A DNA stretch of 64,000 bases from NCBI GenBank assembly GCA_045636605.1, contig JAZTXV010000022.1:9883-73882 (forward strand), given 5' to 3'. Shown here one piece after another: positions 39,000 through 54,853 of the stretch. This DNA comes from Eubacteriales bacterium (GTDB lineage: Bacteria > Bacillota > Clostridia > Oscillospirales > CAG-272). A program made the translations under genes and the position numbers. How positions within the stretch are numbered: position 1 is the stretch's first letter; each line of letters opens with the position of its first letter. Under the pieces are notes generated by a model, which made no database searches, was not told where the DNA came from, and saw only the letters and a list, made by a program, of their open reading frames with translations.

Positions 39000-39096
39000 A
39001 TTATTATATATCGGGCGTAAAATACTTTTTGCGCCCGCCTTGTAGTTTTAAAGGGACATAATTCGACATAATTCGATATAAAAAGAGAGAAATATT

Positions 39097-39462
39097 ATGA
39101 AAGAGAAGCAAACGACAATGGCGGAATGGCCGCCGACGGGTAAGACTCCGTTCAAGGAGTATATAGAGGAGCAAATGCTTTGCGCCCACGCCGAAATGTA
39201 TTCGGGAGAGACCGCATCTCCGTATTCGAGCGAGCCGTGTAGCATTGGCGACACCGCCGAGTATGAAAAAAAGCTGAGGGCATATCGCAGATGGGCAAGA
39301 AGAATAAAGAAAATACTCCAAAACGCTATTGCCGTAATTCAGCAGAAAATAGAAACACAAGCCTACAAGCTCGAAAGAGTTCGGCGTAGCCGAAAGGAAA
39401 GGGCGCAAAGGCTTATGCTCTTTGAGGACGGGGCATCGCTTAGAATAATGGCATTCAACTAA
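39097..39462 (+). CDS. Hypothetical soluble protein; apparent stand-alone copy of the N-terminal domain of the 49180/50954/53986 membrane proteins
   Basis: In-register F..I...EM.S..T.SPY...Y..K..AY pattern shared with those proteins. Confidence 0.6.
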   Translation: MKEKQTTMAEWPPTGKTPFKEYIEEQMLCAHAEMYSGETASPYSSEPCSIGDTAEYEKKLRAYRRWARRIKKILQNAIAVIQQKIETQAYKLERVRRSRKERAQRLMLFEDGASLRIMAFN

Positions 39463-39489
39463 ACGAAATTTTTAACAGGAGAAATAAAT

Positions 39490-42400
39490 ATGATAGAAAT
39501 CACAAAAATTATGGAAGTGATCGGTAGGATCAACTCCAACTGTACGACCATTGACAACCTCGAGGTAAAGTTGACAACAGAGTACAAAAGAGAAAAGAGA
39601 ACGGTAGAGTCATCGTGTACCGAAATGGTTGCGGAAATGCGACAAAAATACGATGCGTTCAAGGATAAGCATTTCCTTAGCATCAAAAGAGATATTAACG
39701 AGCTGATAGACCTTTTGAAAAAGGACTACTCTCAGGAATGGGCAAGCGTAAGTGTAAGCACCGCCGAGTTCTCTCGTAACAGCTACGAGGAAAACGAGAA
39801 GCTTCTTCACAAGATAATAGACGAGCTCAATACCGGCATCGGCAAGCTCAACGCAGTTGACTTTGATAAGCTCGTTCCACCGGTTAAAATCGAGGTAAAC
39901 GGAGAAACCTTCACAACCTTCACGGGCAATCACGAGAACAAGACAACCTACGATACCTCGACACGCAAAAGAGAGATGATAAGAGATCCCCTTCCCATCA
40001 AGGAGCTTGCAACCGAGGTGTTCGGTCACTGTAAGAGAGCCCTTGCGTGCATCGACGCATTGATTATGCTTTACGACAGACAGTTTGACATAGGCAGCTT
40101 CGCAGCCTTTGTTGACGACAGTGCGGCGGCTTGGATGGCAGAGTTTGAGTCGAAAATCCGTACAAGGTACGTAAAGAGCTTTGATGAGCTTTTTGTTGAC
40201 GAAACAGCCGGCGCAATTCCCAAGAGCTTCTTTGTGGAGCTTGACGAGGACGGCAAGAACTCCGATGTCGATGTTGTTGTAGGAGCAAGCGGCTTCAACA
40301 GAAGCATCAACATAGGTGATATCAAGCTTCTCGTTGAGGACGAGCCGAAGCACCTTAAGTACATTCAGGGAAGCCCTGTGCTTGACAGATATCTTGAAAA
40401 CGGATATCTCAGCGCACCGCTTATTCTCGACCTGAAAAAATGCGGAAATATCGTTCTTAATGTTGACGAGGAGAATTACTCCGACAAAACGATTGATTTC
40501 GTAAATCAGCTCATTATGCAATTCCTTCTTTCCTTCCCGGCAAACAGAATCAATTTCTGTCTTGTTGACGTTGATAATAAGATGGAATTTTCACAGTTCA
40601 AGAAGCTCACAAAGATAAATAATGATATCCTTCTCGGCGGCATCGTTCGTGACGACCGTAAGCTCGAGGACACAATTAAGGATATGGAAATGAGAATGTA
40701 TAAGGTAAACGACGACGTTCTCAGCTATAACGGAGTAGAGGACATCTACGAGTACAACGATCGCTTCAAGGCGAACCCGCAAAACGTTCACCTCTTTGTT
40801 CTCTCCAACTTCCCGTCGGGAATGAGAGATGAAACCGCAAGAAAGGTTCTCAAGCTCATTCAGGCAGGAAACAAGGCAGGTATTTACACAATCGTTATCA
40901 ATAACGAGTCCTGCAACCTCGGTTCAATGTTCAAGGCAAACGAATATCAGCACTTTATGCAGAACGTATCAAGCAATGCGCTTGTAATCAATAAGGTTGG
41001 CGACAGATTCACCCTTGACCTTGACACGCCAAACTACTTCGAGCCCAAGACAGACATCAGAACCTCACAGCTTGATAGCATTATCGAAATGCTCAAGGAT
41101 CACGCAACTCAGCTCAACAAGGTTGTTATTCCTCTTGAGCAAATGTTTGAGGACACCGATGCTATGGAAAAGAGCCCGAAGGGTATTCCTCCGACAGCCT
41201 CGCTTGTCGAGATTCCTATCGGTGCAAGAGGCGGAGAGCTTCAAACCCTTGCGTTGCCTACAAACGGAGACGTTCACGCAGTTGCGATCGGTGGTACCGG
41301 CTCAGGTAAGTCCAACCTCCTCCACACAATTATTATGAGCGCCTGCTACAAGTACAGCCCCGAGGAGCTCAACATTTACCTGCTTGATCTTAAGGAGGGC
41401 GTAGAGTTCAAGTATTACGAGAACCACCGTCTGCCGCACATCAAGCTTCTTGGTGTTGATCTTAAGGAGGATATCTTCTCAGCGCTCGCAATTCTTAAAA
41501 ACCTTCAAAACGAAATCACCCGCCGTGGTGCTATATTCAGAGAATGTGGCGTTTCGCAGATTGACGAATACGTTGCTAAGGGCAAAAAGATGCCGAGAAT
41601 TCTCGTTATTATCGACGAAATTCAAGAGCTCTTTGAGATTGACGAGAAAATTGGTCAAGAGGCAGTTGCTCAGCTTGCAACCTTGTTCAAGCAGGGACGT
41701 GCATTCGGTATTAACATTCTTTGGGCTTCGCAGAACGTGCCTAACTTCCCCGGACTTAAGACAAAGGTTCTCAGCCAAATTAAGAACAGAATCAGCTTGC
41801 GTCTTAACGATCCCGACGACGCTCTCAGCATAGGAATTGATCCTAAGGCAGTTAAGAACCTCAACAGACCTGAAAAGGGACTTGGTGTTATCAACGATAT
41901 TCGTTACGGTAACGACAGCGTTGAGTTCCGTGTTGCTTACGCATACGGCGTTGATGAGCGTACCACCTTCTCCGACAAGATTGTCAAAAAGTGGAAGAAG
42001 GTTACCGATGCAGTACCGCAAGCCCCGATGTTTATCGTCGGCGGAAACGAGGATCCGTCACCTATCGAGGGCGAAACACTCTTTACTCGTATTCCAACTG
42101 AAAACGACATCGTTTACAACGAGAGCGGAATGTATAACATCCAGCTCGGTCAGGACTACGTTGCAGGAAAGCCGTTTAATATCAATATTCCCATTGGCGG
42201 CGAGAAGGCAAACGTTATCGTTGCCGGCGTAGATGTCGAGATTTCAAGAGATATGATGGGCTATGCGCTCCTTTCGCTTATCGCAAACAGAGTTACCGAT
42301 AGCCAGAGCGCAAGGGAGAACGCAAAGATCTACTACGCAAACGGCGAGATGATCAACCCGAGAAACAGCTCAGATTTGTTCAACGTAATCCGTACGGATT

Positions 42401-43077
42401 TCGAGGGCTTGGTAGAGCCTGTATCGTCGGTTGAAAGGTTTAAGCTTTGCATAAAGGATCTTTACAAGCTCTATAAGGACAGAGTTGCTCAGCGTAACGA
42501 AAGTGAGGAGCTTACAGAGTTCACACCTCGCTTCCTCGTTGTTCACTCAATCCAAAGATATGCGAGCATCTTTAATGAAAACCCAACGCTTAGCCTGAGC
42601 GACGAGGGCACCCCCAACAGCGAACCGAGCGCACCGACGCCCGCCGCAACGGGAAGCCTGTTCACCGCAGGAAGCCTGTTCTCAAGCGCATCGGCTCCCG
42701 TTACTCCGTCAAGTGCGCCGAAATCTGTATCAAGCATCCTGTTCAACTCCGCAGTTAAGGAGCTTCTCACCGAGGGCGGAGCATACGGAATTCATTTTAT
42801 CGTATCAATCGACAATCCTCTCGGCATCGGTGCTATCAAGGAGGACCTCAAGAGCAGTATGTCGATCAAGCTTCTTACAAAGGGTATTGACAGCAACGCA
42901 ACGGCTCACCTTTTGAGTGGTGACTATAAGGCGGCAGGAAGCCTCAACAACCCGAAGGTTGCTCTTGTTGCTATTGCCGATGAGCGTACTAAGATAAGAG
43001 TTTACCGCTACGATGCAGAGCAGGACGGCGGCTGGTACAAGAGGCTTTGCGAAGCATACAAGAAGCTCGGAGGCTAA
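39490..43077 (+). CDS. FtsK/SpoIIIE-family (EssC/EccC-like) ATPase, soluble
   Basis: GGTGSGKS Walker A, YSPEELNIYLLDLKEGVEF, IIDEIQELF, KQGRAFGI..ASQ; degenerate ATPase-like domains on both sides; no TM stretch seen. Confidence 0.9.
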   Translation: MIEITKIMEVIGRINSNCTTIDNLEVKLTTEYKREKRTVESSCTEMVAEMRQKYDAFKDKHFLSIKRDINELIDLLKKDYSQEWASVSVSTAEFSRNSYEENEKLLHKIIDELNTGIGKLNAVDFDKLVPPVKIEVNGETFTTFTGNHENKTTYDTSTRKREMIRDPLPIKELATEVFGHCKRALACIDALIMLYDRQFDIGSFAAFVDDSAAAWMAEFESKIRTRYVKSFDELFVDETAGAIPKSFFVELDEDGKNSDVDVVVGASGFNRSINIGDIKLLVEDEPKHLKYIQGSPVLDRYLENGYLSAPLILDLKKCGNIVLNVDEENYSDKTIDFVNQLIMQFLLSFPANRINFCLVDVDNKMEFSQFKKLTKINNDILLGGIVRDDRKLEDTIKDMEMRMYKVNDDVLSYNGVEDIYEYNDRFKANPQNVHLFVLSNFPSGMRDETARKVLKLIQAGNKAGIYTIVINNESCNLGSMFKANEYQHFMQNVSSNALVINKVGDRFTLDLDTPNYFEPKTDIRTSQLDSIIEMLKDHATQLNKVVIPLEQMFEDTDAMEKSPKGIPPTASLVEIPIGARGGELQTLALPTNGDVHAVAIGGTGSGKSNLLHTIIMSACYKYSPEELNIYLLDLKEGVEFKYYENHRLPHIKLLGVDLKEDIFSALAILKNLQNEITRRGAIFRECGVSQIDEYVAKGKKMPRILVIIDEIQELFEIDEKIGQEAVAQLATLFKQGRAFGINILWASQNVPNFPGLKTKVLSQIKNRISLRLNDPDDALSIGIDPKAVKNLNRPEKGLGVINDIRYGNDSVEFRVAYAYGVDERTTFSDKIVKKWKKVTDAVPQAPMFIVGGNEDPSPIEGETLFTRIPTENDIVYNESGMYNIQLGQDYVAGKPFNINIPIGGEKANVIVAGVDVEISRDMMGYALLSLIANRVTDSQSARENAKIYYANGEMINPRNSSDLFNVIRTDFEGLVEPVSSVERFKLCIKDLYKLYKDRVAQRNESEELTEFTPRFLVVHSIQRYASIFNENPTLSLSDEGTPNSEPSAPTPAATGSLFTAGSLFSSASAPVTPSSAPKSVSSILFNSAVKELLTEGGAYGIHFIVSIDNPLGIGAIKEDLKSSMSIKLLTKGIDSNATAHLLSGDYKAAGSLNNPKVALVAIADERTKIRVYRYDAEQDGGWYKRLCEAYKKLGG

Positions 43078-43079
43078 CC

Positions 43080-43355
43080 GTGGCAGACGTAATTATTGAC
43101 GAGAGGGCGTTAGAGGAAGCCTCAGCGACCGTTAGAGTCTATCTATCAGGCTTAGACAGCGTCCTTAACGACGCCATAAGAAAAATCCAAGCATCCGCAG
43201 GAGATTGGAACGACGAGGACTACGAAAATCTGTTATCTGCCATAAGCTCATTTATGGCAGATATGGAGTCCCTCAAGGCAGGCGGGGAAGAGATTTTGTC
43301 AAGACTAAACGCAAAGATAGAGGCAATCCACAGATTGCGAAACATAACCATTTGA
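43080..43355 (+). CDS. WXG100-like helical hairpin protein (WND)
   Basis: 91 aa, amphipathic helices, central W-N-D; GTG start 2 nt after the ATPase stop. Confidence 0.7.
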   Translation: MADVIIDERALEEASATVRVYLSGLDSVLNDAIRKIQASAGDWNDEDYENLLSAISSFMADMESLKAGGEEILSRLNAKIEAIHRLRNITI

Positions 43356-43365
43356 GGTGACCTTT

Positions 43366-44283
43366 ATGGAATTTACAGGCATAGAGCAAGAGAATATCCT
43401 TACTGTCGAGAGGCTGTTTGAGAAAATCGACATTCAGGCAAGCGCCTCTGCCGAGGACATCACGGAGAGGGACGGACTTGACATTCCCGTCGGCATACGA
43501 GACGAGGATGGTGAAATACAGAATATTGTCCTTAAATCAAGCCTTTGTATAAGCAGCGTAGTCGTTGCGGGTAGTACAGGAACGGGAAAAACCAACCTTC
43601 TTAACACGATTTTGCTCAGCGCCTGCTACAAATACAGCCCCGAGGAGCTTGAGGTATATATTCTCGATTTCAATCAATATCATAGCGGATACGATCTTTA
43701 CAGGGATTGTCATCTTCCGCATCTGAGCCTGTTTAAGCCCTGCTTGGATAAAAACCCCTTCGATTTGCTTGATGTCCTAAGGGGCTTTGAGGACGAGATG
43801 ATTCGACGTGTCCAAGCATTTAATGAGGGCGGCGTCCGCCACGATTTTGACAGCTACATTCGCGCAGGCAACAAAATGAAAAGAATTCTCGTTATCGTTG
43901 ACGCAATTGAGGAGCTTTTCAGAAACGAGCAGGTAGCGGACGAGGCAGCCGATTTGCTCCGCAGCATTATAAATCGGGCAAGGCTAACAGGAATTCATTT
44001 TGTGCTTTCATTTGAGGATCTTATCTGTGTTCCGAGAATGAAAATGAAGGTGATAGCGGGACTCTGCGCAAGAGTTAGCTTACAGCTTGCCGATCCGTAC
44101 GATGCCTGCGTGCTAATGTTAAATCCCGATTCGGTTAAGGAGCTTGACGGCATCGCAGCTGCAGTTATAAATGATACTCGGTACGGCAGAGAATGTATCA
44201 AATTCCGCACAGCATACGCACACCCCACTGAGCGAAGGGCAGAGCTTGCTTTGCAAATCGCTGAAAAATGGAGAAAAATATAA
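43366..44283 (+). CDS. Single-domain FtsK paralog with degenerate Walker B
   Basis: GSTGTGKT, SACYKYSPEEL identical to the large ATPase, IVDAIEELF; RBS GAGGTG before ATG 43366. Confidence 0.85.
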   Translation: MEFTGIEQENILTVERLFEKIDIQASASAEDITERDGLDIPVGIRDEDGEIQNIVLKSSLCISSVVVAGSTGTGKTNLLNTILLSACYKYSPEELEVYILDFNQYHSGYDLYRDCHLPHLSLFKPCLDKNPFDLLDVLRGFEDEMIRRVQAFNEGGVRHDFDSYIRAGNKMKRILVIVDAIEELFRNEQVADEAADLLRSIINRARLTGIHFVLSFEDLICVPRMKMKVIAGLCARVSLQLADPYDACVLMLNPDSVKELDGIAAAVINDTRYGRECIKFRTAYAHPTERRAELALQIAEKWRKI

Positions 44284-44303
44284 ACATTACAAGGAGAAAA
44301 AAG

Positions 44304-44570
44304 ATGGCTTTTACTATTTCAGCAGAAGCGGCTAACAAGGCTATACAGTATTCGTCTGAGGCAATTCAAAGCCTTGCAGCCAACATAAACACGATGGACA
44401 CAGTTGTAAACTCAAACTTTTCGGGCCTGCAGGACCCGTCATTCCGTCGATATATCGAGCTTTCCGAGCAAATGCAGGGAATGCTAAGACAGGTTGGCAC
44501 TAAGATTGAAGCAGTCCAGGAATATTGCCAAAAGGTAATCAGATGGATTCAAGAATACGGAGAAACCTAA
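44304..44570 (+). CDS. WXG100-like small protein (LQD)
   Basis: 88 aa helical, central GLQD; RBS AAGGAG. Confidence 0.65.
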   Translation: MAFTISAEAANKAIQYSSEAIQSLAANINTMDTVVNSNFSGLQDPSFRRYIELSEQMQGMLRQVGTKIEAVQEYCQKVIRWIQEYGET

Positions 44571-44585
44571 TAGGAGGACGAAAAA

Positions 44586-44861
44586 ATGGACGCATTAAAG
44601 CTGGATCCCAATTTGCTTGACGAAACGGCTCAGGCAATCACAAATTATTGCAATATGCAAAACCAGGTAATCGAGGATTATCTTTCAAAAATGAGCGCAC
44701 TTCAGGGCGAGTGGACAGACGACCAAACAATAGGGCCGCTTCTTGAGGAGATAAGGAATCTCAAATCCTCTGTTGTCGAGCTTATGGGACAAATCAACGG
44801 CTACTACCCCGGCTATTTCAGACAAAAGGCTGAGGAAATCAGAAACAGACCTACATTCTAA
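44586..44861 (+). CDS. WXG100-like protein (WTD)
   Basis: 91 aa, LDPNLL start, central EWTD; paralog of the N-terminus of 47271. Confidence 0.75.
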   Translation: MDALKLDPNLLDETAQAITNYCNMQNQVIEDYLSKMSALQGEWTDDQTIGPLLEEIRNLKSSVVELMGQINGYYPGYFRQKAEEIRNRPTF

Positions 44862-44881
44862 TCAGGCAAAAGAGAGAAAGC

Positions 44882-45136
44882 ATGGAACAGTACGGAGCAT
44901 TTTCTCAAGCCATCATCTCGCTTGACGGTGGCTTGAGCGAGGTAAGGGCGGCTTGGCAAGACCAAACCGCTCAAACCTACGATTCGATAAACGAAAATAT
45001 GAAGGCCTGTGCGGCAGCCGTATGGCAGGTTTATACAAACGCCGCAGGCCTTTACGAAATGGAAAAGAAAAACTATAACGAGAGCGAGTTTGAGCAATAC
45101 ATAAACGAGCTCGGCGCAAGAGCATCGGCGGTGTGA
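44882..45136 (+). CDS. WXG100-like protein (WQD)
   Basis: 84 aa helical, AAWQD motif. Confidence 0.65.
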   Translation: MEQYGAFSQAIISLDGGLSEVRAAWQDQTAQTYDSINENMKACAAAVWQVYTNAAGLYEMEKKNYNESEFEQYINELGARASAV

Positions 45137-45137
45137 T

Positions 45138-46820
45138 ATGGCAAGTATAAGGGCAGTAATGTCTGCAATAGAAAAATTTAATAGCCAAAGCAACGCAGGA
45201 TATTCGGAGCTGCTCGCTATGGCAAACGAAATCCTGGCACAAACCGAAAGGCTGTGTATGGAGGTCAAGGCAGATAAGGAAACGATAGACAATCAAATAT
45301 GTCGTGCATCTGCAATAAGGGACGAGGTCTCTCAAAAGGCAAGCTTCTACGAGCATCAAATGAACGGATATTATTCGGATATGAAGCGTGCCGAGGAGGA
45401 GATAGAATATGTAATGTCCCATCCGAAAACGAGAACAGTCACCGACGACGATGGTAATTCGTACGAGGTGGAGGAAATAGATTACGGCGCACTTGCCGCA
45501 GCCGAAAGAAGATACGAAAGCGCAAAGGAAAGCTATTATCATTTTGCGAACAAATATCAAGAAGCAGCGACAATAGCAGCCGATGCAGTACAGGTAATTG
45601 CAAAATTCGAGTCAATGGGAAAGGCAGTGGCATACGTTGCGGACTCCATTGAAGCGGCAACATACGAAATCAGAAAATTCATAAGACTTATGGAGGAGGA
45701 GGCAGAATACAACCTCCAAGCGCTCTCTGCGCTTATAAGCAGACTTGGAGAATATCTGTCCTCAAAGCCGATATTCCACCCCACAGGCTCAATTTCACTG
45801 AGCGCATCAGGTGGCGCATCAGGTGGCGCATCGGTCGGCTCGTCATCCTCGGTCGGCTACTCCGCCGGAGGTAGCTCTGCTTCGTCATCATCGGGAGTCA
45901 CAAGCGGCGCTGCGACCTCGGGTGGACCAAAGGAAGGCTTTTTAAGTGATTTGTTTTCTAAATGCTTCAACAGGGAAAACACTAAGTCTAAAGAAACTGT
46001 TGATATCGAAAATGCGGCTCACGAGGAATTTAAAAAATTATTAGCGTCTAAGAAAGAGATCGATATTGAAGCTCGAAATAAGGACACTTATGATTCAAAT
46101 AATGATATTGCGGGTGATGGCAATCTTTTCTACGGCGTTGGTGGAAAGCACTTAAAGCAAGCGAAAAAGGAGCTTTTGTGCAAGCAAGGCAACAATTCTC
46201 GAAATAAATTGATGCTTGCAAGCGAGAAAAAGGGCAAGAAAGAATATGCATATACCTTTAGCGGCACATGCGGACCAACAACTCTTGCCAATACCGGAAG
46301 ACAGCTCGGACTGTCAGAGTTAACCGAAGATAAGGTAGTAACCCTTGCATGTCAACTTGGATTGTGCAGACAACCCTCATATTCAGAGGATGGTAAGTAT
46401 ATTCTGCACACCGGTGGAGGAACGAATAACGAACAGATTGTGGCATTGGCGAAGCACCTTGAGCTTGAAGCGGCATATTCTCCGAGCTTAACTCTTGAAG
46501 AGCTTGACGAAACAATCAAGCGTGGAGGAGCTATGATGATGAGCGTGTATAGCGAGGATTTATCATCGAAATCGAACCCCGCAGAAAGAAAATTTAAGAA
46601 CACAAACCACTGGGTTACCGTCACAGGAGTTACAAGAGATTCTAACGGAAAAATAGCAGGAATAATGATTACCGATACGGGAGGACACGTCGAAAGCTGT
46701 GACGGTACCGATATCATCAGCATAGAAAAATTCAATGCGATGAGAAAAAATTCGGGTGATTTTGCAGGTGTTTGCCTATTCAAGCCTGAAGCTGAGGTTA
46801 AAAAAGGAGACGACGAATGA
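45138..46820 (+). CDS. Putative polymorphic effector: helical N-terminus, G/S linker, papain-like C39-type peptidase C-terminus
   Basis: KQG..GTCGPTTLAN (Cys), TNHWVTVTG (His), ITDTG (Asp). Confidence 0.7.
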   Translation: MASIRAVMSAIEKFNSQSNAGYSELLAMANEILAQTERLCMEVKADKETIDNQICRASAIRDEVSQKASFYEHQMNGYYSDMKRAEEEIEYVMSHPKTRTVTDDDGNSYEVEEIDYGALAAAERRYESAKESYYHFANKYQEAATIAADAVQVIAKFESMGKAVAYVADSIEAATYEIRKFIRLMEEEAEYNLQALSALISRLGEYLSSKPIFHPTGSISLSASGGASGGASVGSSSSVGYSAGGSSASSSSGVTSGAATSGGPKEGFLSDLFSKCFNRENTKSKETVDIENAAHEEFKKLLASKKEIDIEARNKDTYDSNNDIAGDGNLFYGVGGKHLKQAKKELLCKQGNNSRNKLMLASEKKGKKEYAYTFSGTCGPTTLANTGRQLGLSELTEDKVVTLACQLGLCRQPSYSEDGKYILHTGGGTNNEQIVALAKHLELEAAYSPSLTLEELDETIKRGGAMMMSVYSEDLSSKSNPAERKFKNTNHWVTVTGVTRDSNGKIAGIMITDTGGHVESCDGTDIISIEKFNAMRKNSGDFAGVCLFKPEAEVKKGDDE

Positions 46821-47245
46821 ATAACATAGAAAAAATAATATCGGCATGTCACTACCATAGAGAAAAAAGTCAATCGTTGTCCGTTCCGTTTATTGTCAAT
46901 GACAACGGAACAGCAAAGATATCATGCTTCACTTATGACGAGCAGGAATTTGACGATAAGAACATTGTTATATCTGTTGGCGAGGCTTTTTTGACCGATT
47001 ATGAAAAAATGCAGCTTGAAATTCTTAAGGTTACAGCTCAGCCCGACATTTTCCCGCTTGAAATCGTATATGACGATTCGGTAAGCATCACAAGAGAAAG
47101 CATAGATGCGTACTATGACTACCTTGACGAGATTATGTCAAACGGAAAAATAGACAAGGAAAAATACAAGAAACTCTTTTATACGATTTGCCCTAAAAGC
47201 CTGAAGCCTATTTATGACTTCTTCGGCGCAGAATTTATAGATTGA
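46817..47245 (+). CDS. Putative immunity protein for 45138
   Basis: Small acidic ORF overlapping the effector stop (ATGA). Confidence 0.55.
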   Translation: MNNIEKIISACHYHREKSQSLSVPFIVNDNGTAKISCFTYDEQEFDDKNIVISVGEAFLTDYEKMQLEILKVTAQPDIFPLEIVYDDSVSITRESIDAYYDYLDEIMSNGKIDKEKYKKLFYTICPKSLKPIYDFFGAEFID

Positions 47246-47270
47246 CACCTCTTTCAAAACGGAGAGAAAA

Positions 47271-48365: not shown

Positions 48366-48377
48366 GGGTGGTGCGAT

Positions 48378-48872
48378 ATGGAATATAACGAAATCATAAA
48401 CAGAGCAATGGATGCGTTTTATGAAAGCGGCAGAGATTTCCCATCCACTATGCTTTGCCCGATATTAGAGCACGATAACGAAGGCAACGTGGTTGACAGA
48501 TTTTTGATGTGTGACGTCGTACGAAATTTCCAAAACGGAAAAATCGAAGGCATTGACGGCCCATACGAAATTTATCAGCAACGAACAGATACAGATACCA
48601 TAGGCGAATTTTTGAAGCCCGAGCAAGTAAGGTCAACTCCAAAGGAGAATGCGCCTCCTCTCACAGACGGAGTGAGCATCTCGGAATTTTCGGCGCTTTA
48701 TTTGCAGGTAAGAGAATTCGTATTCAAAAAACAGATAACAAATGCTCAAGCGGAGGCTCTTGTAAGACTCTTAACCATTTACGAGGAGCTTTTTGAGGCG
48801 GAATTTCAAGCGTTGTATCAAAGCTACGGCGCAGGCTTCTTCGATTGGGCACATTCTACGGTAAGGAGTTAA
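48378..48872 (+). CDS. Putative immunity protein for 47271
   Basis: Directly downstream of the effector; weak similarity to 46817 (P....DN.G; Y..[FY]GA.F). Confidence 0.55.
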   Translation: MEYNEIINRAMDAFYESGRDFPSTMLCPILEHDNEGNVVDRFLMCDVVRNFQNGKIEGIDGPYEIYQQRTDTDTIGEFLKPEQVRSTPKENAPPLTDGVSISEFSALYLQVREFVFKKQITNAQAEALVRLLTIYEELFEAEFQALYQSYGAGFFDWAHSTVRS

Positions 48873-48876
48873 GATA

Positions 48877-49170
48877 ATGGACAAAATAAGTGTAACCGAC
48901 GGCGCACTCTCATCTGTCAGAAGCACACTTGAGGCGCTAAAGAGTGAGCTTAGCACGGTAACGGGGCAATGCTCCTCGACTCTGAACGGAGCGCTTGACA
49001 GCTTAGACGAAAGCATAAGGGGCGCAATCGCAGAATTCGCCGAGGCAATCCAAGCCTTCAGTCAAGCGGTGGCAAACTGCGTTGACGAAAACGTTGCCGC
49101 AATCGACGAGAGACTTTCGAAGCTTCCCCCGTACGAATCACAAATATATCAAAGAAGAAATATAGGTTAA
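48877..49170 (+). CDS. WXG100-like small helical protein (LDE)
   Basis: 97 aa, ISVTDGAL start, two long amphipathic helices. Confidence 0.6.
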   Translation: MDKISVTDGALSSVRSTLEALKSELSTVTGQCSSTLNGALDSLDESIRGAIAEFAEAIQAFSQAVANCVDENVAAIDERLSKLPPYESQIYQRRNIG

Positions 49171-49179
49171 GCGAAGGAA

Positions 49180-50943
49180 ATGGATTTTAAAAAGTCAATA
49201 ACACAGCATTTAGAACGAAAATATGTTCAAATGCTTAACAGAGAAGCGCCGATACCATATACAGAGGCAGTCGGCATTGATAACAGCGACTCGTATAGCG
49301 AGAAAAGAGAAAAATATTACAGTCGACTCTCTCGGGAAAAGAACGAGTTTAACCAATCGGTAGTCAAAATAACAGATGCCGAGGCGGCTCGCTTGGGCGC
49401 AGAAAATGACGAGCTTGAAAGAATAGCGATGGCGAAATTCAGAAGGACAAGGGCAATAAGAACAATACTGTTCATTTTGCCCGTGATAGTTGCCGCCCTC
49501 GTCGGACTTGACGTGTTCACCGAATCGCACGGCCACATGGATACAATCCAATACGATTTGGGAATAGACCTTGGATGGATAATATTCTTCTATGTTTTAT
49601 TCTGCCTTGCGGCGCTCGTCGGATCGGCAATTCTGCTCAACATTTCAATGTACTCAAACGAAATGTACATAGATCGCACAACGATAATCGGCAAGAAAAA
49701 ATACAACACAATAGCTATCGTTGTATTCGCTCTTACCTTAATAATCGTGCTGATTAACGCATTTCAGCTTATTCAAAATCTCGGCAAAGGCAAGATCGTT
49801 TTGGTAGGCGCTGACCGCAGAGAGATAAAATATTTTGAAAGCGGCACGGAGTTTGTTTTCCCCGAGCCAAAAAAGGCTGACGAGAAAAAAGAGGACCATT
49901 TCATAAGATACACCTTCACGCATTGGGAAATAGGAGATGAAAAATACAATGCGGGAGATACCATAGCCCTTGACGGCTGGTACACTGCAACCGCTGTTTT
50001 TGAGGACAGAAAATGGGCAACCCTTTCGTTTTCATTCTCCAATTCGTCAATGTCCGTTGAATATGACGGCAAGACAATCAGTGTAAAATCGGGCGACCAA
50101 ATTGAGATTCCGTGCGGAACGCAGGTTAAGGTAGAGGTGGATTTCTATTATTCGGATACCTCGTTTACCGTGAACGGTAGCAGTGCAAAAAACCCGCATA
50201 GCTTCACACTGTCCTCGAACATGAGGTTCTCTGCTACAAGCTCCAGCCCGGGATGTATCGCTCCCGGAACGGAAATCGTTCTTTTTGACGGAACGGTAAA
50301 GCTTGTCGAGGAGCTTGAAATGGGAGATATGCTCCTGGTGTTCAACCACGAAAGCGGAAAATACGAGGCGCATCCGCTTCTTGCCAATATTCACGCAAAT
50401 ACAGCGCCCGACTACTTTGATGTAATAAAGCTCACGTTCTCAAACGGCAAGGAGCTTAAAATAATTGACGAGCACGGGCTTTTTGATAAGAGCCTGAATC
50501 GCTATGTTTACCTGAACGCAGAAAATGCGGGTGATTTCATAGGTCACCGCTTTGCTTGCGTTGAGCGTAGCGGCTCAGATGTGGTAACCTCGGATACAGT
50601 CTTGGAGAGCGTTACCATAACAAACGAGCTTACAAAAATCTACAATCCCGCATCAATTTGGCATATAAACCTCGTTGCAAACGATTTTCTGACGCTTTCG
50701 GCAGGTATGGTGAATTTGTTTGAATACGACGAGAATATGAAATACGATGAGGAAAAAATGCTAAGCGATATTGAAAAATACGGCTTGTTCACCTACGAGG
50801 ATTTCAAGGACTACGTGCCGTATGAGGTATATCAGATATTCCCATTCAAGTATTATAAGGTAGCAATCTCAAAGGGAGAGTTTACATACCAACGATTGCT
50901 CGGACTTATAGCGCTATACAATAACCCGGACTCTATAAGGTAA
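49180..50943 (+). CDS. Membrane protein: shared N-terminal domain, 3 TM, InlB-like repeats, Hint autoprocessing domain and C-terminal tail
   Basis: PG/CIAPGTEIVLFDGTVKLVEELEMGD (Hint block A), ELKIIDEHGLF (block B), KIYNP...NLVANDFLT. Confidence 0.8.
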   Translation: MDFKKSITQHLERKYVQMLNREAPIPYTEAVGIDNSDSYSEKREKYYSRLSREKNEFNQSVVKITDAEAARLGAENDELERIAMAKFRRTRAIRTILFILPVIVAALVGLDVFTESHGHMDTIQYDLGIDLGWIIFFYVLFCLAALVGSAILLNISMYSNEMYIDRTTIIGKKKYNTIAIVVFALTLIIVLINAFQLIQNLGKGKIVLVGADRREIKYFESGTEFVFPEPKKADEKKEDHFIRYTFTHWEIGDEKYNAGDTIALDGWYTATAVFEDRKWATLSFSFSNSSMSVEYDGKTISVKSGDQIEIPCGTQVKVEVDFYYSDTSFTVNGSSAKNPHSFTLSSNMRFSATSSSPGCIAPGTEIVLFDGTVKLVEELEMGDMLLVFNHESGKYEAHPLLANIHANTAPDYFDVIKLTFSNGKELKIIDEHGLFDKSLNRYVYLNAENAGDFIGHRFACVERSGSDVVTSDTVLESVTITNELTKIYNPASIWHINLVANDFLTLSAGMVNLFEYDENMKYDEEKMLSDIEKYGLFTYEDFKDYVPYEVYQIFPFKYYKVAISKGEFTYQRLLGLIALYNNPDSIR

Positions 50944-50953
50944 GGAGATAAAA

Positions 50954-53833
50954 ATGAACTTCAGACAATCAACCACACAGCACGCAGAGCAAAAATACAC
51001 AAAAATGCTTGACAGAGCAACACCCTCGCCCTACACCAAGGGCGTCGTCGTTGACTCGAGTGGCACATATAGCTCAAAGCGTGACTCATACTATAGCCGC
51101 CTTTCTCGTGAAAAAAATGAATTCAACAAGGCCCTAAAAGAGGTAAAGGACGCAGAGGCGGCTCGCCTTGGCGCTGAAAACGAAAGGCTTGAAGCGGCGG
51201 CAAGGGCAAAATACAGGATTTTCAAGACATTAAAAATCCTTACATTTTTGCTTCCGATTTTAATGGCGGCTATCACGGGAGTTGAGATTTTCTCCCAAAA
51301 AGCTCTTTTTGATCAAATGACAGATGTACCCTATATTTTCTTCTGGGTAGTATTTTCTCTTGTGTCGCTTATTGCATCAATCAGGCTTATTACCTCACTC
51401 AACAACAATCAAATCTACTATAACAGAAATCACATATCCGAAAGCGCAAAATACACCACCCTTGCGATAGTCACAACGGCTGTCGTTTTGGGAATACTTA
51501 TATTCTTCTTCTCGCTTACAGGCTCAATTTTGCCACAAAAGCACGATTTCGTGTTCGTGGAAAGAGGCGGAGAATACTACCTCACAGGCTACACGGGAAA
51601 CAGCCCGCTTTTAGTCTTGCCCGAGGATTACGAGGGACAATCCTACCGTATCGCTGAAGGCGCATTCCAGGATCTTGACGAGGCAACAAGCGTCAGAATT
51701 CCGGAAAAGGTGCTTTCAATCGACAACGATGCCTTCGACGGCTGTAATCTTACGAGCATAACAATTCTCAACAAGGATATCGAGCTCAGAGGAAGCCGCG
51801 CCTTTGGCGATTCCTACGATAACAAAAATATTGAATACATCGAAGCGCCCACGCAGGTGTTGAGCCAGCTCCATCTTGGCAACGCACTCAAAACGGCAAT
51901 TGTTACCGGTGGCGAAACCGTTCCCGCAAACGCCTTCAAAAGCTGCTACTCAATAGAAACACTTAAGATTGCAAGCAGTGTAACCTTGCTCGAGGCAGGC
52001 GCATTCAACACAAGCCTTGCTCCCACTCACATCGACGTTCCGGCATATGCGCTTAAAATTATAGGCTCAAAGAATTTTGAAACCGTAGTTATAAACACGG
52101 GATATAACATTCTTGACAATTCCTTTTCGGGCGCATCCAAGCTTACAAGCGTAAAGCTTCCAAACACACTGCAAACAATAGGCGAAAAGGCGTTCTATAA
52201 CTGCACCTCTCTTACAAGCGTGGAAATCCCAAGCGGAGTAATCTCGATTGGCGCAAACGCATTCTACAACTGCCCAATCGAAAGCATAAGCATTCCAAAC
52301 GGAGTAACCGTTATACCCGAGCAGGCATTTGCAGGCACCGCTCTTAAAGCGGTGGAGATTCCCGAGAGCGTAACCGAAATCGGCACGTATGCGTTTAGCG
52401 ATTGCACCGCTCTTAAAACGGTAGAAATTTCCGAGGGCGTAACCGACATCGGCACGTATGCGTTTAGCAATTGCACCTCTCTTGAAAGTGTAAGCATTCC
52501 GTCCACGATGACAAAAATCAATGAAAGAGCCTTCAAAAACTGCTCCTCACTTAAGAGCATAGAAATTCCCAAGAATGTAACCGAAATTGGCTCATCTGCC
52601 TTCTACGGCTGCAGCTCACTTACAAGCGTTGTCGTTCCCGAGTCCGTAACTGCAATTGGATACGGTGCCTTCTGTGGCTGCAATTCTCTTGTGGAAATAA
52701 CACTTCCGTTCATCGGAAAAGATTATTCTCCCGCCGAGGTGCGTTGGACTACCTTCGGTTACATATTCGGCGACAAGGATGATGACGGCTATATGTCCTC
52801 ATCATACAGCAGCACCTATAAAACAAGCGATTCAAGCGAATATACAACTCAAAACGGTTATTACTTCTATATCCCCGATTCGCTCAAAAAGGTAACGATA
52901 ACAAATCAGTCAACCGTGTGTGATTATGCCTTTGCAAACTGCGATTTGATTGAAACCATCGAATATTCAAACGACATAACCTCACTTGGCAAATACGCAT
53001 TCTCAAATTGCGGCTCTATTGAGCAAATCCCCGATCTTAAAATAACATCAATCCCCGAAAGGGCATTCTCTGCGTGCTACGCTCTTACAAGCATAGAAAT
53101 CCCCGAGGACATAACCGAAATCGGCACGTATGCGTTTAGCGATTGCAGCACCCTTACAAGCATAGTATTGCCCGTGTCATTGGGAAAAATATACTCTTAC
53201 GCCTTTAGCAACTGCACGTCACTTGAAAGCCTCGTAATTCCAAAAAATGTAACAGAAATAGGAACAGGCGCATTCTCGGGCTGCACAGCTGTTACGGAGA
53301 TTGCCTTCAATGCATCAACAATGAACGACCTAAAAAGCTCCAACTACGTATTTTACAACGTTGGAAAGGAAGCGGACGGAATAAAGCTTACAATAGGCAA
53401 TAGCGTAACAAAAATTCCGGCATATCTGTTCTACCCATACAGTAGCTCATCATATGCTCCGAAAATAACGAGTGTTTCCTTTGAGCAGAACAGCGTATGT
53501 CAGAGCATAGGAAATTACGCCTTTAACTGTTGCTCATCGCTTGTGAGCATAGTATTCCCAACCTCGCTCACCGAGATAGGCTATGCGGCATTTACGAGCT
53601 GCACATCTCTTACAACGATAGATATTCCAAGCAGCGTAAAATACATCGGCGCATACGCATTCCAGGCCTGCTCATCTCTTACAACTGCAATCTTTGCAGT
53701 ACCAAGCGGATGGTTCCGTACGTCAAGCAGCACAGCGACAAGTGGAACGGTTATCAATAACCTCGGCAATACCTCAACTGCTGCACAATACCTAAAATCA
53801 ACCTATTACAACTACTACTGGAAGCGCAGCTGA
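50954..53833 (+). CDS. Membrane protein: shared N-terminal domain, 3 TM, BspA-type LRR_5 array
   Basis: Many L.S..IP.SVT.IG..AF..C repeats. Confidence 0.88.
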   Translation: MNFRQSTTQHAEQKYTKMLDRATPSPYTKGVVVDSSGTYSSKRDSYYSRLSREKNEFNKALKEVKDAEAARLGAENERLEAAARAKYRIFKTLKILTFLLPILMAAITGVEIFSQKALFDQMTDVPYIFFWVVFSLVSLIASIRLITSLNNNQIYYNRNHISESAKYTTLAIVTTAVVLGILIFFFSLTGSILPQKHDFVFVERGGEYYLTGYTGNSPLLVLPEDYEGQSYRIAEGAFQDLDEATSVRIPEKVLSIDNDAFDGCNLTSITILNKDIELRGSRAFGDSYDNKNIEYIEAPTQVLSQLHLGNALKTAIVTGGETVPANAFKSCYSIETLKIASSVTLLEAGAFNTSLAPTHIDVPAYALKIIGSKNFETVVINTGYNILDNSFSGASKLTSVKLPNTLQTIGEKAFYNCTSLTSVEIPSGVISIGANAFYNCPIESISIPNGVTVIPEQAFAGTALKAVEIPESVTEIGTYAFSDCTALKTVEISEGVTDIGTYAFSNCTSLESVSIPSTMTKINERAFKNCSSLKSIEIPKNVTEIGSSAFYGCSSLTSVVVPESVTAIGYGAFCGCNSLVEITLPFIGKDYSPAEVRWTTFGYIFGDKDDDGYMSSSYSSTYKTSDSSEYTTQNGYYFYIPDSLKKVTITNQSTVCDYAFANCDLIETIEYSNDITSLGKYAFSNCGSIEQIPDLKITSIPERAFSACYALTSIEIPEDITEIGTYAFSDCSTLTSIVLPVSLGKIYSYAFSNCTSLESLVIPKNVTEIGTGAFSGCTAVTEIAFNASTMNDLKSSNYVFYNVGKEADGIKLTIGNSVTKIPAYLFYPYSSSSYAPKITSVSFEQNSVCQSIGNYAFNCCSSLVSIVFPTSLTEIGYAAFTSCTSLTTIDIPSSVKYIGAYAFQACSSLTTAIFAVPSGWFRTSSSTATSGTVINNLGNTSTAAQYLKSTYYNYYWKRS

Positions 53834-53985
53834 CCTTGAATTAAAGCAAGTCAAAGGCCAAGCAAAAAACCTAAGCGAATTTGAAATCGCAGGAACATAT
53901 TTAGGAAAGAACCGGCGAGCATGAGCAGATTGGTCGGGAGCTTCGTAAATGGCGTTGCTACAAAAACAAACACAAGGAACAAACA

Positions 53986-54810
53986 ATGAATTTTGGACAG
54001 TCAATCCTAAAACACACAGAGAAAAAATATACCGATATGCTAAGCAGAGCAACACCCTCGCCCTATACCAAGAGCGAGAGTGTTGACTCAAGTAATCCGT
54101 ATAGCTCTAAGCGTGATGCATACTACAATCGCCTCGCTCGTGAAAGACGGGAGTTCAACGGTGCGCTTGATACGATTTTAGACACAGAGGACGCTCGTTT
54201 AAGAGAAGAAAGAAATCTAAAGGAAAGAAAGCGCCGCGACCGTCGCCGTGCAAGGAAAGTAAACCTTCCGTTTATTCTGTCAATTATTCTTTCCCTTGCC
54301 GTGACCTTTGTGGTTGTGCCTCTCGAGGCATACGCCTGGGTGGCAGAAACGCTCATACCCTCGGCTTCACTTGCAAATTTCTTTAACACCGGGCCAAACG
54401 GAGAGGGAATTCTCGCATTACAACTAACCCTTGCGCTATTTTTGATAAGCTTGCTAATAGCAATAATTATCATGATAAAAAAAGAGGGATTTTTGGCTTT
54501 CTTGGGGTTCATTTGGACAAGCTTTTTAGTGCTTTTGTTCCTTGGCTCAATCATTTTGGGAATTCTGTTCTGCGTATTTAGATTTTTGGTATTTTTGATT
54601 TCGTACGTATCGTTTGCACTTGTCAGCTCTGTTGCCCCGTTGGCGCTCGGAGTGGCATCGATCACCCTTATGATAATATACGGCAGGGGAATGGAGCTTA
54701 AGCGCAACAAGGCTAAGACCGCTATAAAAATCGTGGCAGGCGTTTTGATAGCCGTAGTTCTTTTCGGCTTGGCAGACAGCGCAATGCCATACTATTACTC
54801 AATTTTCTAA
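53986..54810 (+). CDS. Membrane protein: shared N-terminal domain plus ~5 TM helices
   Basis: N-terminus clearly similar to 50954, then hydrophobic segments only. Confidence 0.8.
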   Translation: MNFGQSILKHTEKKYTDMLSRATPSPYTKSESVDSSNPYSSKRDAYYNRLARERREFNGALDTILDTEDARLREERNLKERKRRDRRRARKVNLPFILSIILSLAVTFVVVPLEAYAWVAETLIPSASLANFFNTGPNGEGILALQLTLALFLISLLIAIIIMIKKEGFLAFLGFIWTSFLVLLFLGSIILGILFCVFRFLVFLISYVSFALVSSVAPLALGVASITLMIIYGRGMELKRNKAKTAIKIVAGVLIAVVLFGLADSAMPYYYSIF

Positions 54811-54822
54811 TAGCTAAAAAAT

Positions 54823-54853
54823 AAAACGGACTGCCGTCGGGCAGTCCGTTTTT
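54823..54853 (+). terminator. Terminator ending the FtsK/WXG-like operon
   Basis: AAAACGGACTGCC/GGCAGTCCGTTTTT. Confidence 0.85.

Follow-up and report, generated by a model that had tools for sequence, protein, structure and literature searches.

Within the window, i.e., the whole stretch of 64,000 nucleotides analyzed in this study, an island of about 16 kb resembling toxin-export loci was observed in the metagenome-assembled genome of an uncultured gut Clostridia bacterium. According to the ORF listing of the window, it consists of 15 co-directional, tightly packed open reading frames (g1 to g15) on the forward strand between positions 39097 and 54810, with intergenic gaps of −4 to 27 nt and a single exception of 152 nt upstream of g15. 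This arrangement agrees with the co-directional, mostly tightly packed operon of the original prediction, in which 14 genes had been counted; the uncounted one is most likely g4, encoding a second FtsK-like ATPase. At position 38970, where a consensus promoter had been proposed, a sigma-70-type promoter-like site (TTGACA, 18 nt, TATAAT; 38970–38999, forward strand) was found, assigned by consensus match only and matching at 12 of 12 positions. Promoter-like sites numbered 34 overall, compared to 24.5 ± 4.8 in shuffled sequences, so that weight was given to the perfect match at 38970 alone. The terminator expected at 54823 was recovered as a terminator-like, G+C-rich palindromic hairpin of 13 pairs with A and T runs on its flanks (54823–54852), scored on the reverse strand in the hairpin search. 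Because its palindromic stem has AAAA/TTTT ends, this hairpin could work in both directions.

In the related genome G820, genes encoding an MBL-fold protein and a RecQ-like protein border the island, and the same flanks lie about 120 bp apart in the island-less congener G810. The g1–g15 block behaves as a single accessory insertion/deletion unit. Neither an integrase nor flanking repeats of at least 9 nt were found in the window, and profile searches of the island proteins revealed no relaxase, VirB4 or replication genes. Furthermore, searches of phage, plasmid and viral collections did not recover the island, and the genes flanking it in the window are of the repair and housekeeping type, not those of a defence island.

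FtsK-type ATPases

The first gene, g1 (39097–39462), encodes a soluble protein of 121 aa without a family match, whose orthologue in G820 (38% identity) is located upstream of FtsK. It is followed by g2 (39490–43077), encoding a 1195-aa protein. The original prediction of a three-domain FtsK ATPase without transmembrane (TM) or FHA region was confirmed for g2 by profile searches, hydropathy and an AF2 model. The protein matches Pfam FtsK_SpoIIIE (5.1e-33); its top NCBIfam matches are EssC (4.8e-32), EccCa and EccCb, and its top PDB profile matches EccC 4nh0 (2.1e-35), EccC5 and YukB. In the AF2 model (pLDDT 82), a helical N-domain (about residues 4–257; helices 4–86, 99–122, 171–236 and 245–257) precedes three alpha/beta domains, and the best Foldseek match in the PDB is the three-ATPase cytoplasmic domain of EccC (4nh0; E 3.4e-27, 1020 columns). 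D1 and D3 are degenerate, whereas D2 is of the active type, featuring Walker B (705–710) and the sole Walker A of g2 detected in a motif scan (601–608). With an EssC equivalog score of 110 bits compared to a cut-off of 778, g2 is not an EssC orthologue. The maximum mean Kyte-Doolittle hydropathy over 19-residue windows is 1.35, no window reaching 1.6, compared to 2.7–3.0 for g13–g15, and an FHA domain was not matched in Pfam and NCBIfam profile searches. Among the 120 g2-family homologues in the matches listed, six have any 19-residue window at or above 1.8, with a single such segment each. In summary, g2 represents a triple ATPase of the EccC/EssC type that lacks a membrane anchor, Walker A being retained in the middle domain only. 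The sole other FtsK match in the same genome is a 955-aa frame on contig C35.

A single FtsK-like ATPase domain of 308 aa is encoded by g4 (43357–44283; Pfam FtsK_SpoIIIE 5.2e-15), which is paralogous to D2 of g2 and has its Walker A at residue 72. Its orthologue is present in G820, and none was found within the examined stretches of G088 (locus L084) and L091.

Motors of this class may also pump or sense DNA, as in the conjugation of integrative elements or in segregation. An FtsK_gamma winged-helix protein is encoded directly upstream of FtsK in G088 (6.4e-22), and FtsK_gamma lies within the N-terminal extension of the homologue P0111 according to precomputed domains. Moreover, a tyrosine integrase gene (Pfam) directly precedes the FtsK gene in L090, an N-terminal sequence resembling that integrase, as judged by sequence likeness, precedes FtsK in L091, and TcpA and FtsK motor domains are among the lower-ranked structural matches of g2. 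However, three ATPase domains of which one is active represent the layout of EccC/EssC and not of DNA translocases. Together with the lack of relaxase, VirB4 and replication genes in the island and of an integrase or flanking repeats in the window, as well as the absence of matches in plasmid and phage collections, this makes a DNA-handling or mobile-element function very improbable.

Small helical proteins and peptidase toxin candidates

The five stand-alone helical (WxD) proteins of the original prediction correspond to g3, g5, g6, g7 and g12, which are 84–102 aa long and can be aligned around a centrally located W-x-D or L-x-D turn. Among these, g3 (43047–43355; start codon uncertain) encodes a WxD helical hairpin protein and g5 (44304–44570) a protein of 88 aa, whose ATG is preceded by AGGAGG and for which a longer ORF version begins at 44268; both have orthologues in G820, G088 and L091. 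The WxD helical hairpin protein g6 (44586–44861) is a paralogue of the g10 N-terminus (49% identity to g10 residues 1–91). Orthologues of g7 (44882–45136) occur in G820 and G088, as do same-position orthologues of g12 (48877–49170), the 97-aa protein closing the WxD/toxin module. The small proteins of the window match Pfam WXG100 only below threshold (g7, 0.012, below the gathering score; g3, 0.043), which counts against reading the island as an export system. Across all loci, 10 of 31 small proteins match this family at E ≤ 0.05, the best at 4.6e-10. Furthermore, an hhalign chain leads from a Pfam-significant WXG100 protein via a WXG-like pair of genome G783 (80%) to g3 (90%) and on to the g6 family (96%); g12 is linked to the G783 pair at 58%, and for g5 and g7 no link to a WXG100 profile was obtained by hhalign.

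Two protease effectors, each followed by a small gene, had likewise been predicted. The toxin candidate g8 (45138–46820; 560 aa) is composed of a helical N-domain (about residues 1–215), a Gly/Ser linker and a C39-like peptidase domain (Cys378, His491), and g10 (47271–48365; 364 aa) of a WxD hairpin, a Gly-rich linker and a C39-like peptidase domain (Cys199, His305). Both exceed the Peptidase_C39_2 (PF13529) gathering score of 24 bits (g8, 25.5; g10, 34) and share GTCG...H.VTVT motifs, the Cys and His residues being located in conserved motifs. Based on these sequence features, g8 and g10 are predicted to represent papain-fold (C39-like) peptidases. The candidate immunity gene g9 (46817–47245; 142 aa) overlaps g8 by 4 nt, and g11 (48378–48872; 164 aa), the candidate immunity gene for g10, is located downstream of g10 in the window as well as in G820 (44% identity). 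Both products lack TM segments, and g11 has no family or Atlas match. The N-domain of g8 is conserved, while its C-terminus is different or missing in G088 and G820; G820 has neither the g8 peptidase domain nor g9. None of 70 homologues of the g10 peptidase domain features an N-terminal signal peptide or TM segment. A hairpin of the g6 type is present in about 13 of them, and the others, as far as their N-termini were inspected, look helical at this end. These proteins define a putative peptidase toxin family with WXG/LXG-like heads.

Membrane proteins and predicted docking of the ATPase

Alignment and hydropathy support the earlier claim of three membrane proteins with one common N-terminal domain. 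Residues 1–88 are common to g13, g14 and g15, and TM segments begin at about residue 89, so that the common module comprises an 88-residue cytosolic domain and three TM segments, followed by a Hint-like part, BspA-type LRR repeats or no C-terminal domain. The Hint-like part of g13 (49180–50943; 8.7e-4) is a weak match, scoring 19.4 bits compared to a gathering score of 29.7. LRR repeats are present in g14 (50954–53833; LRR_5, PF13306, 1.9e-142, seven matched stretches), whose residues 1–199 were modelled by AF2 with a pLDDT of 85. As deduced from alignment and hydropathy, g15 (53986–54810) is a short form consisting of the N-domain and a multi-pass TM region without a large C-terminal domain; its G820 equivalent, a 281-aa frame, is the last island gene. 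With 78 representative clusters in a set of 1.84 billion proteins, the family is rare. Two more genes for the membrane domain are located amid housekeeping genes in the same genome, which speaks against the export reading.

The original prediction had also proposed that separate membrane proteins dock the soluble ATPase, and complex prediction is in line with this. The g2 N-domain was placed on the g14 membrane-protein domain with ipSAE values of 0.76, 0.76 and 0.75, the best control reaching 0.01, with a partner pLDDT of 91 and contacts agreeing by at least 95% between runs. Of 80 solved complexes, 58 attain the ipSAE mark applied, as do 2 of 110 mismatched pairs; since own alignments were used, this calibration is only roughly valid here. 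Across the 120 homologues listed, conservation is higher at the interface positions of g2 than over the remainder of residues 1–300 (0.547 vs. 0.425, Mann-Whitney p = 2e-5). Thus, the g2 N-domain is predicted to dock onto the 88-residue domain shared by the membrane proteins, a contact compatible with secretion, with signalling and with binding of a substrate by the ATPase.

The membrane proteins might also themselves be cargo, the N-domain serving as recognition tag and the ATPase aiding insertion or display of LRR and Hint-like proteins, with the toxins as unrelated co-passengers. The architecture, in which the N-terminal module stays the same and the C-termini vary, is in accordance with such a role: C-terminal extensions are present on 48 of the 78 representatives, and LRR_5 and Hint were detected in 17 and 3 (best 4.7e-6), respectively, of the 67 members scanned. 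However, 25 of the 78 are short forms displaying nothing, including g15 and its G820 equivalent. Moreover, no dedicated export route is required for three hydrophobic TM segments that follow a cytosolic domain. In EccC complexes of known structure, binding of the substrate signal involves the last ATPase domain and not the N-terminus (title of PDB entry 4n1a), and cargo is considered improbable.

Co-occurrence of the membrane domain with the ATPase was observed within the genus. Of 50 genomes of the genus, only the two harboring the close FtsK orthologue possess the membrane domain, and it is encoded downstream of FtsK in three of four close-orthologue loci with downstream DNA. One carrier deviates: G088 (97% complete) contains the FtsK/WxD/g8/g12 core and no membrane-domain gene in the whole genome, so the family is not obligatory for the core. 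Among the 120 homologues listed, residues 114–205 of g2 are lost, by internal deletion and not truncation, only in P0098, which is taken to be the G088 protein. The absence of this segment from a genome without the membrane family is in line with the docking prediction.

Relation to known systems and proposed function

Of the canonical partners EssA, EssB, EsaA and EsaB, which had not been recognized in the locus, profile searches found none in trans either: YukC/EssB (PF10140) and YukD/EsaB (PF08817) were detected in none of six carrier genomes (own genome 73% complete, two others 97–98%), and EssA (PF10661) and EsaA (TIGR03929) not in the own, 73% complete genome. TM-less EssC-like ATPase/WXG100 operons have been noted computationally in CoCoNuT type III-A extensions (Bell et al. 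2024, PMC11090510), where, in the passages on this module, the way they work is left open and Anantharaman, Iyer and Aravind (2012) are credited with regarding the operon as a mobile, stand-alone module. As such operons have already been noted, the island represents a further variant of them. Compared by description in these passages, both feature three ATPase domains of which only the central one is predicted to be active, an extended helical or coiled-coil region at the N-terminus, where EssC has its FHA and TM parts, WXG100-like small neighbours of which one or more lack WxG, a fusion of a helical domain to an effector followed by a small gene, and a patchy, mobile distribution. Unlike that module as described, the island has no McrBC, VWA or TerY-P context (none in profile searches of the island proteins), its effectors are C39-like peptidases instead of nucleases, and it encodes the 3-TM family predicted to bind the ATPase N-domain as well as a linkage to BspA-type LRR proteins. 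The distant G783 locus contains a kinase, PP2C and FHA. The rare membrane family, with its cytosolic domain predicted to bind the motor N-domain, offers a testable answer to how TM-less EssC-like ATPases work.

The LRR linkage also permits a different explanation, namely intracellular conflict or defence coupled to receptors. LRR sensors would switch the EssC-like ATPase upon ligand binding, and the W-x-D proteins and peptidases would act in the producer under the restraint of g9 and g11; the sensors may be placed outside the membrane via the 3-TM/N-domain anchor, be soluble with zinc ribbons, or be fused to the ATPase. Four distant paralogues are flanked by arrays of at least three BspA-LRR genes, the products featuring an N-terminal zinc ribbon and neither TM segment nor signal peptide. 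These paralogous systems belong to the same genus and lack a membrane gene in cis, which argues against export. The homologues P0071, P0073, P0017, P0042 and P0044 carry LRR_5 or Sel1 repeats as an N-terminal fusion to the TM-less ATPase, an architecture that is easier to reconcile with a cytoplasmic sensor than with a translocon. Thus, the ATPase superfamily is linked to BspA-LRR proteins more widely than to any membrane protein, a recurrent partnership in ruminant-gut Clostridia. Further points in favour are weak NACHT and nSTAND1 matches of g4, matches of the ATPase domain to the defence-system ATPases SspH (5e-23) and mad8 (2.9e-22), the docking prediction, which equally suits signalling, and the TM-less EssC-like/WXG100 modules described within restriction-type loci (PMC11090510). 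The link of ATPase and LRR by fusion, neighbourhood or TM anchor is analogous to NLR/TLR-type systems, although the ATPase here is of the FtsK/HerA and not the STAND class, the LRRs are of the BspA type and ligand sensing is hypothetical. NLR/TLR-type architectures combine an NTPase with LRR sensors. Against this explanation, secretion ATPases are the best matches of g2, phage, plasmid and viral collections gave no match to the island, and its flanks are of the repair and housekeeping type. In addition, a toxin with swappable C-terminus and adjacent small gene is a hallmark of exported polymorphic toxins, and effectors of defence systems are not usually accompanied by cognate immunity genes. 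A conflict function, the main rival of export, is considered rather unlikely.

The original prediction had left the choice between a distinct secretion architecture and a receptor-triggered conflict system; of these, the former is placed ahead. A split, non-canonical type VII-like system for toxin export is proposed for the island, with about an even chance of being correct. The helical N-domain of g2 is predicted to clamp the 88-residue cytosolic domain of g13, g14 or g15, bringing the motor to the membrane, and docking on a membrane protein would stand in for the FHA and TM regions present in EssC. WXG100 and Lap partners form targeting complexes for LXG toxins; by analogy, the W-x-D proteins (g3, g5, g6, g7, g12) may form targeting complexes with the helical N-domain of g8. 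The ATPase would export the C39-like peptidase toxins g8 and g10, against which the producer would be shielded by g9 and g11. Ectodomains (BspA-LRR, Hint-like or none) would be located outside the cell and may serve adhesion or targeting. A more specific version is possible, although we lean against it: a soluble EssC-like hexamer would plug into interchangeable 3-TM subunits with different ectodomains, making the channel or anchor a swappable component in trans and linking the recognition of targets outside the cell with the delivery of toxins. Relatives with soluble or fused LRRs would then represent cytoplasmic versions of the ATPase-LRR partnership.

In the type VII systems described in the literature considered here, the ATPase itself is membrane-bound, while the predicted anchor is separate here. 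As described by Garrett et al. 2024 (PMC11217815), all ten subtypes T7SSa–j possess a membrane-bound ATPase and most a YukD-like protein; compared to that description, the island differs from T7SSc–j in having neither a membrane-bound TsxC-type ATPase nor a YukD-like TsxB. With the Firmicute T7SSb it shares an EssC-type ATPase, adjacent immunity-like genes, the lack of signal peptides and, as in LXG loci, small WXG100-superfamily proteins upstream of toxins with a long helical N-domain and variable C-terminal toxin part; unlike T7SSb, it lacks FHA and TM regions in the ATPase, detectable EssA, EssB, EsaA and EsaB, and a Pfam LXG match. A separate soluble ATPase polypeptide is also known from the split EccCa1/EccCb1 of mycobacterial ESX-1, g4 being an extra stand-alone domain here; EccCb1 structures are among the PDB matches of g2. 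In ESX-1, the TM helices stay on the ATPase-bearing EccCa1 chain, whereas the predicted membrane partner in the island is devoid of any ATPase domain.

Island layout and unity

On the plus strand of the window, 15 ORFs (g1–g15) were listed between positions 39097 and 54810, separated by −4 to 27 nt with the exception of a 152-nt gap ahead of g15. The island is preceded by a perfect consensus match to a sigma-70-type promoter (38970–38999) and followed, 3' of the last gene g15, by a 13-pair hairpin (54823–54852). Furthermore, an 11-pair hairpin without T run (39012–39037) was located in the interval between promoter and g1, the presumed 5' leader. The mostly tightly packed, co-directional genes described in the original prediction were thus confirmed, while its count of 14 genes has to be corrected to 15. 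The missed gene is most likely g4, which encodes a stand-alone FtsK-like ATPase domain of 308 aa.

The source genome comprises 1.61 Mb on 40 contigs and is estimated to be 73% complete, the window being part of contig C22. DNA of the locus was found in goat, sheep and other gut and faecal metagenome runs (DNA runs only; no RNA run was listed), and seven runs from five studies contain at least one fifth of the sampled words of the locus. The related genome G820 shows the same 15-gene order as the window, followed by four tandem membrane-domain genes, and in both cases MBL-fold and RecQ-like genes border the island. Since these flanking genes lie within about 120 bp of each other in G810, where the system is absent, g1–g15 represent a single insertion/deletion unit. 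Direct repeats of ≥9 nt common to both island borders were not found, and one 9-nt inverted match between the borders (TATAGTATA) is probably due to chance. Mere coincidence in the neighbourhood of the membrane protein genes g13–g15 was rejected as an explanation because of the insertion/deletion of the entire island and the co-occurrence within the genus.

Upstream of the island, three co-directional genes (32126–37999, minus strand) encode a 1166-aa SNF2/ResIII-type helicase, a MoxR-like AAA protein and a DUF2201 metallopeptidase/VWA-like protein. Between them and the island stands the MBL-fold gene.

The ATPase g2 and its predicted membrane partners

The g2 protein (1195 aa) matched FtsK_SpoIIIE of Pfam (5.1e-33), and its nearest named families are type VII ATPases, namely EssC (4.8e-32), EccCa (1.5e-27) and EccCb (6.8e-23), all matches being far under the equivalog cut-offs. 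Likewise, EccC (4nh0, 2.1e-35), EccC5 and YukB ranked above DNA translocases when a 13-sequence profile was searched against the PDB. The AF2 model of g2 (pLDDT 82) consists of a helical N-domain (about residues 4–257) and three alpha/beta domains, and Foldseek aligned it over 1020 columns (E 3.4e-27) with the cytoplasmic part of EccC, which contains three ATPases. The sole Walker A motif (601–608) and the Walker B motif (705–710) are both located in the middle domain. Neither a TM segment (maximum KD 1.35 vs 2.7–3.0 for g13–g15) nor an FHA match was obtained for g2, which bears out the predicted three-domain FtsK protein devoid of both. At least 382 members of the g2 family were recorded in metagenome and MAG data, 120 of them listed; because only 6 of these 120 show a single marginal hydrophobic 19-mer, absence of a TM anchor is a trait of the family.

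Models of the canonical components YukC and YukD had no match in the source genome, G088, G820, G815, G795 and G783, and those of EssA and EsaA had none in the 73% complete source genome. Besides the island, the source genome yielded a single further FtsK match, a frame of 955 aa on contig C35. Absence of a partner is no proof in an incomplete genome; G088 and G783 are 97–98% complete. These results agree with the original prediction, in which EssA, EssB, EsaA and EsaB had not been recognised. Moreover, its interpretation withstood the searches for TM and FHA regions, for partners acting in trans and for co-occurrence of the membrane genes.

As had been proposed for the three membrane proteins, g13, g14 and g15 have one N-terminal domain (residues 1–88) in common, followed by TM segments. 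In the AF2 model of g14 residues 1–199 (pLDDT 85), two short helices, an extended stretch and a long helix (36–114), which passes from the cytosol into TM1, precede TM2 and TM3. No PDB fold matched this N-domain model at E ≤ 0.001. If the N-terminus lies inside, the three TM segments should place the LRR and Hint-like parts on the extracellular side. With 78 representative clusters in 1.84 billion proteins, the family is rare. The membrane-domain match begins at the protein N-terminus in 76 of the 78 representatives; TM segments, mostly starting at residues 86–96, are present in 73, and 25 are short forms, while 48 carry C-terminal extensions. Among 67 members scanned, LRR_5 was detected in 17 and Hint in 3.

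In g13 (49180–50943), the predicted external part contains a Hint-like module starting with CIAPGTE (about residue 351) and then a tail of ~80 residues. Hint modules are able to self-cleave, and the tail might therefore be released. Two more members of the family are encoded in the source genome, each isolated in a housekeeping context (neighbours judged by eye to be RuvB-like and MetG-like): a protein of 421 aa (C33, 21328–22593, plus strand) and one of 611 aa with LRR (C27, 22703–24538, minus strand).

Complex prediction for g2 residues 1–300 and the 88-residue membrane domain resulted in docking scores (ipSAE) of 0.76, 0.76 and 0.75 vs 0.01 for the best control. In the calibration, which is only rough because our own alignments were used as input, 58 of 80 solved complexes attained this score mark, as did 2 of 110 mismatched pairs. 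Partner pLDDT was 91, and at least 95% of the contacts were common between runs. The modelled complex supports binding of the g2 N-domain to the membrane domain, in line with the earlier proposal that separate membrane proteins would dock the soluble ATPase. Across the 120 homologues listed, g2 interface residues are better conserved than the rest of residues 1–300 (0.547 vs 0.425, p = 2e-5). Residues 114–205 form the core of the predicted interface, and P0098 is the sole homologue of the 120 that lacks them by internal deletion, not truncation. Identified by its length, P0098 is taken to be the protein of G088, a genome in which no membrane-domain gene was found. Accordingly classified, the window, G820 and the metagenome locus L090 have both docking segment and membrane-domain gene, and G088, the only other close-orthologue locus with downstream DNA, has neither. 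Interface conservation and the P0098/G088 deletion are two independent observations that agree with the docking prediction.

Small helical proteins, toxin candidates and proposed export

The five small WxD proteins of the original prediction were recovered as g3, g5, g6, g7 and g12, which are helical, 84–102 aa long and align, together with their counterparts of seven other loci, on a central W-x-D or L-x-D turn. WXG100 was the commonest Pfam match of the small proteins (10 of 31 at E ≤ 0.05, best 4.6e-10), but those encoded in the window itself gave sub-threshold matches. A shallow profile–profile chain leads from a Pfam-significant WXG100 protein to a pair from G783 (80%), on to the g3 family (90%) and from there to the g6 family (96%). 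The link of g12 is weak (58%), and none to WXG100 was obtained for g5 and g7.

Both predicted protease effectors, g8 and g10, possess Peptidase_C39_2 domains exceeding the gathering score, with GTCG and H.VTVT motifs that align. The g10 N-terminus is a paralogue of g6 (49% identity). Among 70 homologues of the g10 peptidase domain, an N-terminal signal peptide or TM segment was found in none; a g6-type hairpin starts ~13 of them, and the other N-termini inspected look helical. The g8 N-domain (about residues 1–215), for which a census of toxins recovered only three proteins, is kept in G820 and G088, where the C-terminus is missing or different. Moreover, G820 lacks both the g8 peptidase domain and the candidate immunity gene g9 and retains both g10 and the candidate immunity gene g11. 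Comparison of the g8 N-domain with PDB sequences returned coiled-coil noise only (best 0.042), and the ESM Atlas yielded no usable match for g11. A constant N-domain, a variable C-terminal toxin and an adjacent immunity gene constitute the pattern of polymorphic toxins; by analogy, g8 and g10 are candidates for such toxins, and g9 and g11 for their cognate immunity genes.

A split type VII-like toxin export system, in which the g2 motor would dock on separate 3-TM proteins and the toxins would be exported, is regarded with moderate confidence as the most likely mechanism.

Occurrence, relatives and the rival reading

Among 49 other genomes of the genus, a close FtsK orthologue was detected in G820 only, and no genus genome besides the window's and G820 contains the membrane domain. 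With the FtsK N-region as query, 1 of 398 other genomes in the class sample, 1 of 400 in the phylum sample (a distant relative), 0 of 400 in the order sample (E ≤ 1e-20) and 0 of 24 other genomes of G088's family were positive. Outside the genus genomes the system is very patchy, and few gene neighbourhoods were obtained because the wide genome samples were so seldom positive. Plasmid, phage and viral-contig collections gave no match. A metagenome search with the family-specific alignment yielded only two loci, and a genome-contig search with the full-length FtsK alignment, whose search patterns fell on the P-loop, only generic EccC-type loci among the matches listed, nearly all from Actinobacteria. 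In L090 the FtsK gene is preceded by one for a tyrosine integrase, and locus L091 has a similar protein in that place. The FtsK frame of L090 (9122–11688) ends after 712 aa, with an LRR fragment and a 197-aa membrane-domain gene behind it; this copy beside an integrase looks rearranged or decaying.

In the relevant part of Garrett, Higginson and Palmer 2024 (PMC11217815), T7SSc-j are all described with a membrane-bound ATPase. The section of Bell et al. 2024 (PMC11090510) on CoCoNuT extensions reports EssC-like ATPases with three ATPase domains, only D2 being active, and an N-terminal coiled coil replacing FHA and TM regions. Their neighbours are two WXG100 genes, a coiled-coil-nuclease and then a small gene, and a mechanism unlike EssC is judged likely there. 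As cited in the same section, Anantharaman et al. 2012 described the EssC-like/WXG100 operon as mobile and able to stand alone. Furthermore, WxG and FtsK are named as the minimal T7SS set in a passage of a Helicobacter pylori pan-genome paper (PMC4978471). No description of the membrane partner family, the LRR link or the peptidase toxin family was found in the literature texts searched. The island is a new variant of a kind so far known from computation.

Distant TM-less FtsK paralogues (1029–1098 aa) were found in four loci of four genus genomes, namely L102 (G815:C100), L105 (G795:C131), L106 (G790:C28) and L104 (G806:C11). LRR_5 (BspA-LRR) genes surround them, and the L102 stretch examined contains as many as nine. 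Most of the encoded LRR proteins combine N-terminal zinc ribbons (CPKC...FCxxCG) with an acidic or Ser-rich linker that bears a recurring FDFS(S/A)L-like motif, and none has a TM segment or signal peptide. All of these stretches except L106 also contain small W-x-D/WXG100 genes, which are followed in L102 and L105 by genes for a ~340-aa helical protein and a ~95-aa protein.

LRR_5 repeats (P0071, P0073) or Sel1 repeats (P0017, P0042, P0044) are fused to the ATPase N-terminus without TM segments in five homologues among the matches listed, and the 360-residue N-terminal extension of P0003 has precomputed domains including NACHT, nSTAND and a Zot-type P-loop; these six extensions were seen in protein sequences and are possibly gene-calling artefacts. 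In G088, the gene immediately before that of the ATPase (L084, 9793–10893, minus strand, G088:C2) encodes 366 aa and contains an FtsK_gamma winged-helix domain (6.4e-22), and in P0111, which has a 370-residue N-terminal extension, FtsK_gamma is fused to the ATPase. Both occurrences hint at DNA binding in some family members. Of the proteins scanned with PADLOC, g2 and g4 gave generic ATPase-domain matches only, the ATPase domain also matching defence ATPases, and g1, g8–g11, g13 and g15 gave none.

The main rival to the export reading, a receptor-coupled intracellular conflict system, is considered rather unlikely. It stays alive because the core is present in G088 without any membrane-domain gene, and because of the LRR-flanked paralogues, the LRR and Sel1 fusions, FtsK_gamma, the defence-ATPase matches and the two solitary membrane-domain genes of the source genome.

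At locus L107 (G783:C34), an 842-aa FtsK-like ATPase and two WXG-like genes have a ClpB-type AAA+ protein, a radical-SAM activase-like protein, a zinc-ribbon-FHA protein, a PP2C phosphatase and a Ser/Thr kinase as neighbours. The locus joins this kinase/phosphatase/FHA theme, known from published T7SS variants, to a short ATPase without a detected TM segment.
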